Notes: generated by a model from the sequence alone, not told the origin. DNA of 26,801 nucleotides from Proteromonas lacertae (GCA_002245135.1 NGBS01001178.1:124001-150801), one strand, 5' to 3'. Numbered from the stretch's first letter, positions 19,135 through 26,801 are shown. A program made the numbers and translations.

Positions 19135-19250
19135 GTATAACCGTAAGAATATCACTGTAGGTGGGTAAACCGTACCAACTATTCTTAGGTGCCTTCTACA
19201 GGTAAGAATAAGCGATTTGAGTGTAAATTAGCTTTTGGTACGGGTTATAC
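19135..19250. repeat. GC-elevated 116-bp segment of interlocking direct and inverted repeats (candidate element terminus/origin)
   Basis: gtataacc 19135-19142 / ggttatac 19243-19250; ctgtag 19155-19160 / ctacag 19196-19201; ccgtaccaa 19170-19178 / ttggtacgg 19235-19243; gtaagaata at 19143 and 19202 with inverted tattctta at 19180-19187. Confidence 0.7.
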
Positions 19251-19393
19251 TGGAGGAAGAGGTGAATTTAAATATCTTTATATATTTTTGTGTATGAGTA
19301 ATTTTATGGGTTAATATTTTTTCTTTTGTTTTTTGTATATAATTTCATTTAACTTTTTCTTATTGTTTTTTATCAATCATAATTTCAAAAAAA

Positions 19394-19750
19394 ATGTCAA
19401 GAATTTGGATCGCGAATGTTAATATAGAAGATAGAAGTAAGCGTGAAGATGAAGACTTTGAAAGAATCTATGCAATCATTGAAAGTGAAGTAGCTAGAAT
19501 AGTAGCTCAACCATCACCACCATCATCACTTCCAGTAGTAATGTGGTATACTTCTGATACAGCTGATGAGGATGATAGAAAGTATGAAGAATGGCGTGCA
19601 ATTCATAAACCAACTAGAGTAGCACAAGCAACCATACGCCCTAGAAAATGGGTTGATCCTGAGGAAGAGCGCAGAAAAACAGAGATGTTAAAGCGTTATG
19701 GCATTGATGAAAAGAACATCATTGAAGAAAGACTAAGATTTCATAACTAA
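19394..19750 (+). CDS. Polinton-associated hypothetical protein, 118 aa
   Basis: Intron-less ORF, ATG preceded by an A-run, charged protein-like composition. Confidence 0.7.
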   Translation: MSRIWIANVNIEDRSKREDEDFERIYAIIESEVARIVAQPSPPSSLPVVMWYTSDTADEDDRKYEEWRAIHKPTRVAQATIRPRKWVDPEEERRKTEMLKRYGIDEKNIIEERLRFHN

Positions 19751-19877
19751 TTCTTAAATCATTGGTTTTAATTGAATTTTGTTTTTTGATTGGCTGAATT
19801 GAAATAAACATAATATTACATAATTCTTTTCATTCATAAATTTCTTGCGATTTTTGAAATAATCTACATAAATTAAA

Positions 19878-20462
19878 ATGAGTGATATTCAAAACGAATT
19901 AGATGCTAATATTGAAAAACACTTACAAGAAGGTGAAATGTATGAGAATGATATGTCTGAAGTAAAATCATTAATTATTAAAGTATTTAAGGATATGTTG
20001 GATGGTATGTATTCTGTGATTGAAGAGTATGAAGATGATCCAGAATGGAGTGAACAACCAGGTGATGATATTGATATAACAATGGAAGAAGAAGAAGTGA
20101 AGGAAGAAAAACAAAGTGAATCTAAATCTAAAAAAAGAAAGGATATAACAAAGTCAGATTCAGATTCACAAGTATGTAGTACTTGTGGTAAGAAGAAAGC
20201 TAATGATGAATTTGGTTATAAGAGTGAAGGTGTATTCTATAAATCATGTACAGAGCGTAGAAATAAGAAGAAAAGAAGATATGAAGAAGTAAAGAAAGGA
20301 TGTGATAATAGTGGAGAAGATAAGAAGAGTAAAGTAGAGAATAGTTCCACTGCCGAGGGTCGACCAAAGGTAGATATTGCTAAAGTAGAAACATCTACAA
20401 GTTCTATCCCGGGGGTAGCTACAGTAGATCTAACTACATCACCTACTTGTATAATTAATTAA
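19878..20462 (+). CDS. Polinton-associated acidic protein with degenerate C4-type zinc finger, 194 aa
   Basis: CSTCGKKKANDEFG....FYKSCTERR, where the fourth Cys position is CGT (one base from TGT). Followed by basic NLS-like RRNKKKRR. Confidence 0.7.
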   Translation: MSDIQNELDANIEKHLQEGEMYENDMSEVKSLIIKVFKDMLDGMYSVIEEYEDDPEWSEQPGDDIDITMEEEEVKEEKQSESKSKKRKDITKSDSDSQVCSTCGKKKANDEFGYKSEGVFYKSCTERRNKKKRRYEEVKKGCDNSGEDKKSKVENSSTAEGRPKVDIAKVETSTSSIPGVATVDLTTSPTCIIN

Positions 20463-23539: not shown

Positions 23540-23608
23540 TCAAAACAATATATATATAAAAATATGAATGATATATATTTAAAGAATTAATGAATTAAAA
23601 TAATTAAA

Positions 23609-24385
23609 TCATTCTTCTACCTCTCCCAAATCCTTATCACTTAAAGTGTTACCACCATTACCAAAGTTAATAACTTTAGCAGCACTAATAAAACCATTGC
23701 TAATTACTTTCTTAGCAGGGAATGGTCTACGAGTACTAATTAAATCACTATCTTCTATCTTAGTTCTCTTAATTCTTGGAGGTGAAACAAATTTGTTTTG
23801 ATTAGCTTGATCTTTCTTAATTTTCTTCTCATTACTTCTTCTAATAGCTGTAGCTAAATCAGGATTTTCATCATAACCAACAATATCACTACAAACTCTA
23901 TGATTAACAAAGTTTTGAGTACCATTACTCTTAATAGAGATTTGATTATCAACAACACTTACAGCAATTTTACTACCAACATCAACATCAGATGGAACTC
24001 TATAGTTACTATTATCCCATATCATAATAGAATTGAAATTGTGGAAGTATTTAATACCATGTTGAGGTTCTCTACATCCTACACTAATCAAATATCCACG
24101 AATGATTTTTTCTATAAAGTCATTCTCGTTTCTATCATAAATTTGTTTCAATACATATTTCACTTCATCAGCTGAATATGTTTCAAAATCTCTTCCATTA
24201 TTAATTACAACTTTATGATCCAAATCATGAACAAAAGTAATCAATACATATTGACTGGTTTTAGTAGGCTTAACTGTAATACTCTCAATAGTTCCTTTAA
24301 TAATCCACTTGTTGCATAACTTTGGATTTTTGTAGTAATCACTAAATTCTACATCTGTAGCTTCATAGGGTGTTTCGTTACTCAT
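23609..24385 (-). CDS. Hypothetical protein, 258 aa; possible OB-fold ssDNA-binding protein
   Basis: Intact ORF divergent from PolB. Beta-strand pattern IIKGTIESI / YVLITF / IMIWD / VGSKIAVS / NFVNH followed by a basic disordered tail. The ORF is solid; the fold is inferred. Confidence 0.65.
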   Translation of the reverse strand: MSNETPYEATDVEFSDYYKNPKLCNKWIIKGTIESITVKPTKTSQYVLITFVHDLDHKVVINNGRDFETYSADEVKYVLKQIYDRNENDFIEKIIRGYLISVGCREPQHGIKYFHNFNSIMIWDNSNYRVPSDVDVGSKIAVSVVDNQISIKSNGTQNFVNHRVCSDIVGYDENPDLATAIRRSNEKKIKKDQANQNKFVSPPRIKRTKIEDSDLISTRRPFPAKKVISNGFISAAKVINFGNGGNTLSDKDLGEVEE

Positions 24386-24527
24386 TTTATATAAGGGAGA
24401 GATGAAAATAAAAAATGATTAAAAAATGTCAAGAAAAATGAAAATGAAAATTTCTTTTTATTTTAAAGTCGACCAATCAAATTTCATATTTCCATTTTTG
24501 ATTTATTTCGCGAATTCTGTCTATATA

Positions 24528-26801
24528 ATGAGCAAGCATAAAAAGCTTTTAAAAGCATCTTTTAAACTTCTAGAACAAACTTCTAATAAAAATAAACATC
24601 ATAAGCATAAGCATCACCATCATCATAAACATAAACATACAGATGAACCACCACCAGAAGAAGCTCCAAAACGAAGATTAGCTCCATTATTTAGTACAGA
24701 TGCTATTCAAAATAAAAAAAGATACAATAATGATATACCAATAATCAGTGATACATTCTTTGGTGGATTAATGCCTTCTTCCCTACCAAAACCTAATCAA
24801 AATCAAAGATTTAATGATAGAATACGTGATGCTAGAGAAGTTGATAAATCATCTCAAGGTGTTACTAGGAAATGGGTTTTCAATTATAACAATAGAAATT
24901 ACAGTACACCACAACAATGTTATCATGATTTTGTTAATAATAGTGATATTAAAGATATATTACATGAATTAGCTGATACTATGAATATGATAAAATTCTT
25001 CTTTATTGTACGTTCAATTTATATACCAGATGAGTCTACTGACAGTGATGATGAAGTTTCTATATTTAGTCGTAGTAGACTATGTGAAATAACAAAAATG
25101 TCTACTGTAGGTGAAATACAAACTATACTGGAGAATATATTTACACAAATATCAGAAGATGATTCAAATCATCCTCAAAGTGGTCTTACTTTTGCTAGAG
25201 TAAATACTATAGAATTATTGTAACAAAATTTAAAGTGATATGTGGAAGTAGTTTTATTGTTTTACCTGCTAAATTTCAAGGTCTTAGATGTTTAACAAAT
25301 GTAAAAAATGAAGATAATGAATGCTTTAAGTGGAGTGTACTATGCTCATTATATTCTAATAATCTCCAATGTAATAAAGATAAACCTGAAAAATACAAAA
25401 TGTATGAAAAGAAACATGATTGGAGTATGTTAACATTCCCTGTTGATGCTACAGACAATGTATCTATTGATAAATTTGAAACAAAGAATCGGCTAAATGT
25501 GAATATATTTTATATTGATATTGCTAAAGATAAAGAAGAAATATTCTTACCCATTCATTTATCTAAACAAAAGAAATCTAAAAAATATAGTGTTGTAAAT
25601 CTATTGCTAATAAAAAATGAAGATGGAAATTCACACTATGTGACAATAAATACCTTACCTGCTCTATTTAGAAAAATGATAGATAAAAAGAATAATACTA
25701 ATAATATATTTGTGTGTCCATATTGTCTCTTCTATACTTACGATGATGGATCCTTTAATAGTCACCAAATATATGACTGTCAAGATAAAGAGAATGTATT
25801 AAGATTATTCCCTGATAAAGATGATAAAGAAAAATCATACTTAAAATTTAGACATTGGACTCACCTCCAAACATTACCAGTTGTTATGTATTATGATACT
25901 GAAACTTATTTTGTACCATATGATAATGAATTGAATTTAAGTAGATATAAATCTATGGAAGAAATAGATAATAATGATACTAGAATAGAATTATCAAAAA
26001 CTGAGCAATCTATTATGGCTAGGCATAAGCTTTATTCCTACTGTATCTATGTAGATAGTAAAATACCAGATATAAACAGTTTTACTGTGATTAAATATAA
26101 ACAAAATGAGGATCATAATATTGAAAATGATTTTTTGTCTTGGATATATTAAATATATACGATCAAATATGTACAGTTTACAATTATAGACTAGCTAATC
26201 CTAAACCTTTTGATGGAGATGAAATAGCTAAGGATATACATAATAAAAAGAGAAAATGTGACTTTTGTGGTAAACCATTTAATTCTATTGATCATGTAAA
26301 GGTACTTCACCATGATCATTTCACAGGTCATTATATTGCTTCAATTGGTAGTAATGAGAATTAATATTGATATAAAAAAATTAAAAGTACCAATAATAGG
26401 TCATAATGCTATGAAATATGACCAGCATTTCATAGTAAAGGAATTAGCCAAATTTGCTGCAATAACTAATAGTCCACTCAATATTATACCTAATACAGAT
26501 GAAAACTATAAGTGTATACAATACAAGAATTTGGTGTTTATTGACAGTTATTTATTCTTAGCAGGTTCTTTAGCAAATTAACTATGATCTAAAAATTACA
26601 GCAGAATTAAATAATACTAAGAAAGAAAAATTCAAAACAATTTATGAGAATTTTAAAGAATATAATGGACATTACCTAGATGATGAAATTATTGAAAAAT
26701 ACTTACTTCAAAAATTATTTTCCATATGACATATGACATCTTTGAAGCTTTTGAAGAAAAATTTCAAAGATCTTACTATAGATGATTTTAAGTCTAAATT
26801 G
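24528..26801 (+). CDS. Protein-primed DNA polymerase B (Polinton type), 5' part, with several frameshifts
   Basis: GSSFIVLP..NVKNEDNECFKWSVL, SHYVTI, CPYC..H..C finger, Exo I YYDTET, EndoVII-like CDFC..KVLHHDHFTG, Exo II GHNAMKYDQHFI, FIDSYLFL..SL, LLQK.FPYD. Frameshifts at ~25218, ~26131-26136, ~26352 and several after 26578. ATG 24528 is more plausible than 24426. Confidence 0.92.

Follow-up and report, generated by a model that had tools for sequence, protein, structure and literature searches.

The DNA analysed here, called the window below, is a stretch of 26,801 nucleotides (nt) from Proteromonas lacertae (GCA_002245135.1, NGBS01001178.1:124001-150801). Its right part, from 22379 to 26801, probably belongs to a divergent element of the Polinton/Maverick type. 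It holds the integrase gene, a conserved gene of 258 residues and the front of the polymerase gene of this element, in a copy that is likely non-functional. Elements of this type occur in multiple copies per genome and have a length of 15-20 kb. They link transposons with eukaryotic DNA viruses, and divergent lineages among them help to chart host range and gene repertoire. The window adds to these a long-branched pair of polymerase and integrase as well as one gene conserved within the family. The conserved 258-residue gene is the most useful new fact. The following features make up this part of the window.

22379-23539, minus strand: retrovirus-type (rve) integrase, 386 codons in one frame, from profile and fold comparison
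23609-24385, minus strand: intact gene of 258 residues, conserved in the element family, from four relatives
24386-24527: spacer of 142 nt between the 258-residue gene and the polymerase gene, GC 0.21, bounded by the gene starts from the alignments with P0001 and P0025-P0028
24528-26801, plus strand: protein-primed family B polymerase (pPolB), N-terminal part of about 760 codons, frame-disrupted, from phmmer, tblastn and Pfam

The polymerase gene

A phmmer search with a 317-residue piece of the polymerase gave 23 matches. The best match, P0001 (854 residues), shows 70% identity with an E value of 3.4e-141. Another one, P0002 (1301 residues), is 34-36% identical (E = 1e-35) and carries the Pfam family DNA_pol_B_2 (PF03175, E = 1e-16). 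Region 26312-26581 of the window itself matches PF03175 with an E value of 5.9e-5, under the Pfam cut-off. Comparison with 17 Polinton-like viral loci from IMG/VR, containing 401 open reading frames (ORFs), showed that the pPolB ORFs of all 17 match 25133-26578 (tblastn, E down to 5e-22). An IMG/VR scan with P0001 alone gave nothing real.

Four ORFs of the window, 24426-25223, 25235-26152, 26140-26364 and 26312-26581, are pieces of one polymerase gene. In tblastn, residues 1-234 of P0001 align with 24528-25217 (frame 3), 236-547 with 25220-26158 (frame 2), 539-614 with 26134-26361 (frame 1), 615-687 with 26360-26578 (frame 2) and 691-763 with 26586-26801 (frame 3). This alignment places the start of the gene at 24528, so that ORF 24426-25223 is the N-terminal part of the polymerase. 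The window end cuts the protein at about residue 763, for a full length of about 1300 residues in P0002. The part inside the window comprises the N-terminal region and the exonuclease motifs; the palm part lies beyond the window end.

The reading frame of the polymerase changes at least four times, near 25218, at 26134-26158, near 26360 and at 26578-26586. An extra in-frame stop is found inside the last piece, 26586-26801, and reading of the three frames suggests more local shifts between 26715 and 26790. Introns were considered as the source of these breaks and rejected. Neighbouring tblastn pieces touch or overlap, in the query as well as in the window, so that the breaks are changes of frame.

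A quick maximum-likelihood tree of pPolB was calculated with 40 rows, corresponding to the 23 database matches and the 17 IMG/VR loci. In it, P0001 and P0002 form a fully supported pair on a long branch, separate from the 36 other rows. Built with no outgroup and from rows without names, this tree shows divergence and not placement.

One detail concerns a zinc-finger-like stretch of the polymerase (26290-26361, plus strand). In our reading, the Cys pair kept there in P0002 and in more distant polymerases is absent from the window and from P0001. At this stretch, more distant relatives have a Pfam match to Endonuclease_7.

The integrase gene

Region 22379-23539 was identified as an rve integrase because of its relative P0024, its matches in the viral loci, the hhalign comparison and the Foldseek search. 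Direct Pfam matches are weak and below the Pfam cut-off (rve, E = 0.0057; rve_3, E = 0.0099). The close relative P0024, a protein of 390 residues, is 60% identical (E = 4.1e-141) and itself matches Pfam rve with an E value of 1.5e-4. It belongs to a cluster of 7 members, one of which is present on 35 contigs.

With tblastn, four of the 17 viral loci were found to have an integrase ORF that matches the window integrase (best E = 2.9e-12). In three of them, L014, L001 and L003, the matched ORF sits directly after the polymerase gene. Two of the matched viral ORFs have Pfam rve E values of 4.7e-13 and 6.2e-9. With hhalign, the pair formed by the window integrase and P0024 aligned to five pPolB-adjacent integrases over 299 columns (Prob 99.2, E = 2.3e-19). 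The integrase groups with such integrases adjacent to pPolB. In the AlphaFold model of P0024 (predicted local distance difference test, pLDDT, 63.3), an N-terminal helical domain precedes an RNase H-like core and a small C-terminal beta domain. When this model was used in Foldseek, all 50 of the 50 listed rows were retroviral integrases (HIV, SIV, MVV, PFV and RSV), with a best E value of 8.5e-11.

The first and second catalytic Asp residues are invariant in the alignment with P0024 and the five viral integrases. At the third catalytic position (22814-22830, minus strand, residue ~177), the window and P0024 have Asp, four of the five viral integrases have Glu and L001 has Asn. The gene is interrupted once, at codon 100 of 386, by an in-frame TGA (23240-23242) in a place where P0024 has an amino acid.

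Searches in other collections were less informative. A PDB sequence search with the integrase profile gave chance-level rows only, PHROGs gave a weak transposase match alone (E = 5e-4), and a JGI metagenome scan with the integrase family gave no match. An origin from a long terminal repeat retrotransposon was also considered and rejected: Pfam detects neither reverse transcriptase nor RNase H in 19394-26581, and no flanking direct repeats are seen.

A conserved gene of 258 residues

Located between the integrase and polymerase genes, the 258-residue gene is divergent from the latter. It has four relatives, P0025-P0028, with 97, 65, 66 and 60% identity. Alignment of the five sequences contains 125 invariant columns, mostly within the first ~185 residues. 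This N-terminal part is beta-rich and is followed by a basic, variable tail. Because of these relatives and of the invariant columns, we consider 23609-24385 a real gene of the element family and no strict orphan. No match was found in Pfam, PHROG or PDB sequences, and scans of IMG/VR and of the JGI metagenomes with the family gave nothing real. ESM Atlas matches of this gene are unnamed clusters.

The AlphaFold2 model of the protein is poor (pLDDT 45.7). Foldseek with this poor model returned nothing at E ≤ 0.001. Its best row was PriB (E = 0.011), and Rim1, an SSB and baculovirus LEF-3 were also in the top 50; these four weak matches are single-strand binders with an OB fold. The OB fold is a five-stranded beta barrel with a helix between strands 3 and 4 and binds single-stranded DNA. 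At the low pLDDT given above, the predicted order of strands and helices fits such a barrel in our reading, as a lead only. The protein might be an OB-fold single-strand binder, a weak lead that we regard as doubtful.

The 142-nt spacer separates the divergent starts of this gene and of the polymerase, and we infer that it is a shared promoter region. By eye, no shared promoter motif was seen upstream of the ORFs of the element.

Comparison with Polintons and related viruses

We assign the element to the Polinton type because pPolB and an rve integrase are both present, the combination by which Polintons are defined in PMC5499653. Like the Polintons/Mavericks, it has a pPolB with a long N-terminal domain and exonuclease motifs, and an rve integrase with an N-terminal domain, a catalytic core and a small C-terminal beta domain. 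It differs from them in its pPolB, which sits on a long branch and reaches only 34-36% identity with P0002, the nearest relative outside the family. Its integrase falls under the Pfam rve cut-off and has Asp instead of the more frequent Glu at the third catalytic position. The gene order is also different: integrase and 258-residue gene are divergent from the polymerase, whereas in Polintons the polymerase is followed by the integrase.

Among the IMG/VR Polinton-like viruses, L014, L001 and L003 share with the window a homologous pPolB and integrase at about 25-32% identity. The feature set of L014 comprises an A32 ATPase (E = 1.6e-13), a weak adenain-like protease match, pPolB and rve. Much closer are the family relatives (P0001, P0024-P0034, P0025-P0028), with 60-70% identity in the core genes and 97% for one copy of the 258-residue gene. 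What is known of these relatives is limited to proteins encoded on short contigs (1.4-6 kb). The 97% identical protein, which comes from another assembly, is the one hint of multiple copies.

An earlier note on this DNA had proposed that pPolB and an integrase of a Polinton-type element of divergent lineage are present, with no capsid, packaging ATPase or protease in the 7.6 kb concerned (19135-26801). All of this is borne out. pPolB was recovered by phmmer and tblastn, and the integrase by hhalign and fold comparison. The type agrees with the definition in PMC5499653, and the divergence is visible in the long-branched P0001/P0002 pair and in the integrase score below the Pfam cut-off. Neither Pfam nor the ORFs of the viral loci produced a match to the three missing functions. 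The note had also counted five unassigned ORFs. All five lie where it placed them and have no Pfam match at E ≤ 0.01, but one of them, 23609-24385, is the conserved gene described above. ORF 24426-25223, listed as a separate one, had to be reassigned to the polymerase on the alignment with P0001.

As established for the family, the linear double-stranded element would be inserted into chromosomal DNA by the rve integrase and then copied from its ends, with strand displacement, by the protein-primed polymerase. The 258-residue gene would encode an accessory replication protein. The remainder of the polymerase and any capsid module would lie past the window end.

ORFs and GC island left of the integrase

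Four further ORFs and a short GC-rich island are found between 19140 and the integrase.

19140-19265: GC island of 126 nt with 41% GC, flanked by 15% and 14%, from composition
19394-19750, plus strand: Arg-rich ORF of 118 residues, from ORF call and composition
19878-20462, plus strand: acidic ORF of 194 residues with a short Cys motif at residues 99-131, from ORF call
20528-20911, plus strand: ORF of 127 residues with one hydrophobic segment, from ORF call
21098-22240, plus strand: ORF of 380 residues whose C-terminal half is an E/K-rich low-complexity coil, from ORF call

Long ORFs are strongly over-represented in this part of the window. Nine ORFs of at least 118 residues were seen in 19135-26801 for 0.007 expected from 300 Markov-1 simulations. 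One of the nine, 22042-22425 on the minus strand (127 residues), is antisense to the E/K-rich tail of the 380-residue ORF and is most likely a low-complexity by-product and no gene.

The four left ORFs are compact, intron-less and on one strand, and the last one ends 139 nt from the integrase stop. Thirteen of the 15 GC-richest 120-nt stretches of the window fall in 19.5-21.1 kb. The 118-residue ORF has 37% GC, and its Arg/(Arg+Lys) ratio is 0.68 versus 0.09-0.49 in 19 other measured ORFs. The island at 19140-19265 contains GTAAGAATA twice and a 13-nt inverted pair. It has no Rfam match, and its fold z-scores of -0.97 and -2.2 are not convincing. This island is possibly the left edge of the inserted DNA.

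Searches for relatives of these ORFs were negative. None of the four has a Pfam (E ≤ 0.01), PHROG or PDB match. When the five unassigned ORFs and polymerase residues 1-230 were used as queries, no match was found in the 17 viral loci (E ≤ 0.01). In the opposite direction, tblastn with the viral ORFs other than pPolB and integrase ORFs (17 loci, 401 ORFs) gave one 39-residue match to the window only. It links residues 99-131 of the 194-residue ORF to the Cys motif of L005:14219-14974 with an E value of 0.006 for 401 queries (4e-5 in pairwise comparison). We take this match as a lead, not as evidence. IMG/VR scans with ORFs 19394, 19878 and 20528 gave nothing real, and the two apparent hits of the 118-residue ORF span just 15 residues of the search pattern itself. 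HMMER with residues 1-230 of the 380-residue ORF against 1.84 billion representatives gave a sole match that was judged spurious, a repeat protein of 2614 residues with six matched stretches and a bacterial-looking sequence.

State of the copy

The copy in the window is likely a dead remnant and not a fresh insertion, given a polymerase gene with four or more breaks of its frame and an integrase gene with a premature stop. According to PMC8097293 and PMC10748475, degradation by stops and frame shifts is the usual state of Polinton/Maverick copies. Third-codon GC is 0.12-0.18 in the element genes, matching the 0.15-0.27 of the host genes. The earlier note had called the orphan ORFs largely intact and had suggested a relatively recent insertion, a view that the broken core genes and this third-codon composition do not support. 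The flank that it took for decayed host-type sequence consists mainly of the remnant of a second rve integrase, unrelated to the first (16310-17599, minus strand). ORFs elsewhere in the window are unbroken over 380, 386, 258, 772, 416 and 392 codons, which argues against a high general rate of insertion and deletion errors.

Several observations weigh against such a simple picture of decay. Of the four frame changes, three fall in the final 670 bases of the window, together with the extra stop. One frame change of the polymerase is in a run of six T, and the host XPB gene has one frame change too. Because of this clustering toward the end, of the T run and of the XPB case, some of the breaks are possibly consensus errors. 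In addition, the integrase and the 258-residue gene have no frame change in 1938 nt for at least four in the 2274 nt of the polymerase. Breaks as uneven as these are not predicted by uniform neutral decay.

Alternative readings

Two alternatives concern what the element is and how far it extends. Apart from pPolB and the integrase, no Polinton feature was seen: no capsid, penton, A32 ATPase or protease was found in the window with Pfam or with the 401 ORFs of the viral loci, for capsids by sequence methods that are weak and for an element that continues beyond the window. PMC8097293 gives terminal inverted repeats and a 6-bp target-site duplication for Polintons, and neither a terminal repeat nor such a duplication was seen. 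No long inverted repeat was found inside the window, the right end of the element lying outside it. In 5 of the 17 viral loci, moreover, both genes are on one strand with the polymerase first and the integrase after it, an order that differs from that of the window. These points count against a Polinton. The missing capsid, ATPase, protease and terminal repeat would also suit another pPolB replicon, such as a linear plasmid or an adenovirus-like or virophage-like one, that happens to lie near an unrelated integrase. We consider this extremely unlikely, as the closest matches of the integrase stand next to pPolB in Polinton-like viral contigs, the N-terminal domain of the polymerase is common to the polymerases of such contigs, and the two genes lie 1 kb from each other in DNA of nuclear type with spliced host genes. 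For the extent of the element, composition and arrangement only make us lean slightly toward the four ORFs at 19394-22240 being lineage-specific accessory genes on the same inserted DNA, with a left edge near 19140. It is quite conceivable, though we lean the other way, that only 22.3-26.8 kb is the element. The left ORFs would then be orphans of the host lineage or part of another insert, and the left end would lie in 22240-22379. Residues 1-230 of the 380-residue ORF have no relative among the 1.84 billion representatives, and the three core genes have relatives in the same collections, at 60-70% identity. From this difference, the 380-residue ORF is not a conserved part of the family. The integrase of L014 ends 356 nt from the contig end, in favour of a smaller element, and third-codon GC fails to separate the left ORFs from host genes. 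Against the smaller element, an inverted terminal repeat would hardly fit into the 139 nt available. The left block is also distinguished from its left flank by the composition step at 19140 and by the GC-rich 19.5-21.1 kb, and the left ORFs are intron-less and tightly packed, as the core genes are.

Other alternatives concern the breaks. The copy could be intact and possibly active, if the frame changes arose as consensus errors where the assembly nears the end of a contig that lies in a repeat. In support of this, the breaks crowd toward the window end, at about 1583, 664, 441 and 223 bases from it, with the stop within the last 90. The T run, the frame change in XPB, a gene expected to be essential, and the clean frames of the integrase and of the 258-residue gene point in the same direction. 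We nevertheless judge it unlikely: the defect of the integrase is a base substitution that creates a stop and no insertion or deletion, and the first frame change (25218) is 1.6 kb from the end and outside any long homopolymer. The long unbroken ORFs elsewhere in the window also speak against assembly errors. Broken copies do occur in the family, as the similarity of P0001 to P0002 ends after about P0001 residue 800. The uneven breaks could instead reflect selection that keeps the integrase and the 258-residue gene, through host co-option or use in trans by other copies, as the polymerase decays. By rough arithmetic, 4-8 insertions or deletions placed randomly over the two stretches would spare both genes with a probability of 0.09-0.007, and the 258-residue gene has a relative 97% identical elsewhere. 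Selection is improbable all the same, because the integrase itself stops prematurely at codon 100 of 386 and errors at the end of a contig explain the unevenness equally well. Our preferred reading of the copy is still that of a dead Polinton-type remnant. A bolder proposal would be a distinct Polinton lineage of an AT-rich eukaryote with a D-D-D integrase and a new OB-like DNA-binding gene, both kept intact by host co-option or use in trans, a decaying polymerase, and four GC-rich orphan ORFs that form a new accessory or structural module unrelated to the double jelly-roll set; we regard it as highly improbable. A single truncated, apparently degraded copy raises no new question alone. It would gain in value with full-length copies that carry an unusual morphogenesis module, or with proof of selection on the integrase and the 258-residue gene.

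Host genes and other features of the window

The whole window has a GC content of 26.4%. Its frames are cleanest under the standard code. The ciliate code (table 6) gave no cleaner frames and was dropped. TGA as a sense codon in general was also considered and is unlikely, since the other breaks are TAA ends and frame changes. According to Pfam, spliced eukaryotic genes occupy the left part of the window. The following features lie left of the element.

2429-3523, minus strand: WD40 protein, from Pfam
4153-4668, minus strand: C-terminus of an EME1/MUS81-like protein, from Pfam
5757-6608 onward, minus strand: XPB/ERCC3 helicase with upstream exons, from Pfam
16310-17599, minus strand: second rve integrase remnant, from Pfam (rve, E = 1.4e-14, and Integrase_H2C2)

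Reading the XPB exons in the sequence shows that the introns of this gene measure about 42-50 nt; the host is an AT-rich eukaryote. ESM Atlas clusters matched by its WD40 protein belong to Eukaryota. The frame change of XPB/ERCC3 lies near 6715-6725 (minus strand, region 6700-6760), in a conserved exon between 'TATLVRE' and another stretch of 11 residues, where an intron does not fit. It is either an assembly indel or the mark of a pseudogene copy.

The reading frame of the second integrase, at 16310-17599, is interrupted by stops at 16640-16642 and 17243-17245. No specific similarity links this integrase to that of the element, and no reverse transcriptase was found near it. It has an H2C2 zinc-binding domain and is a separate decayed remnant of a mobile element.

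Between the host genes and this remnant, six ORFs run on one strand (7842-15287, plus strand), with stop/start overlaps at 10792/10795 and 11181/11184. Four of the six have no Pfam family. Two proteins of the run have P-loop N-terminal regions with weak mutual similarity (E = 4e-4). One of the P-loop proteins is fused to a ubiquitin hydrolase (UCH) domain, and a second UCH ORF comes after it. A direct repeat of 97 nt with 79% identity is found at 14326 and 15139.

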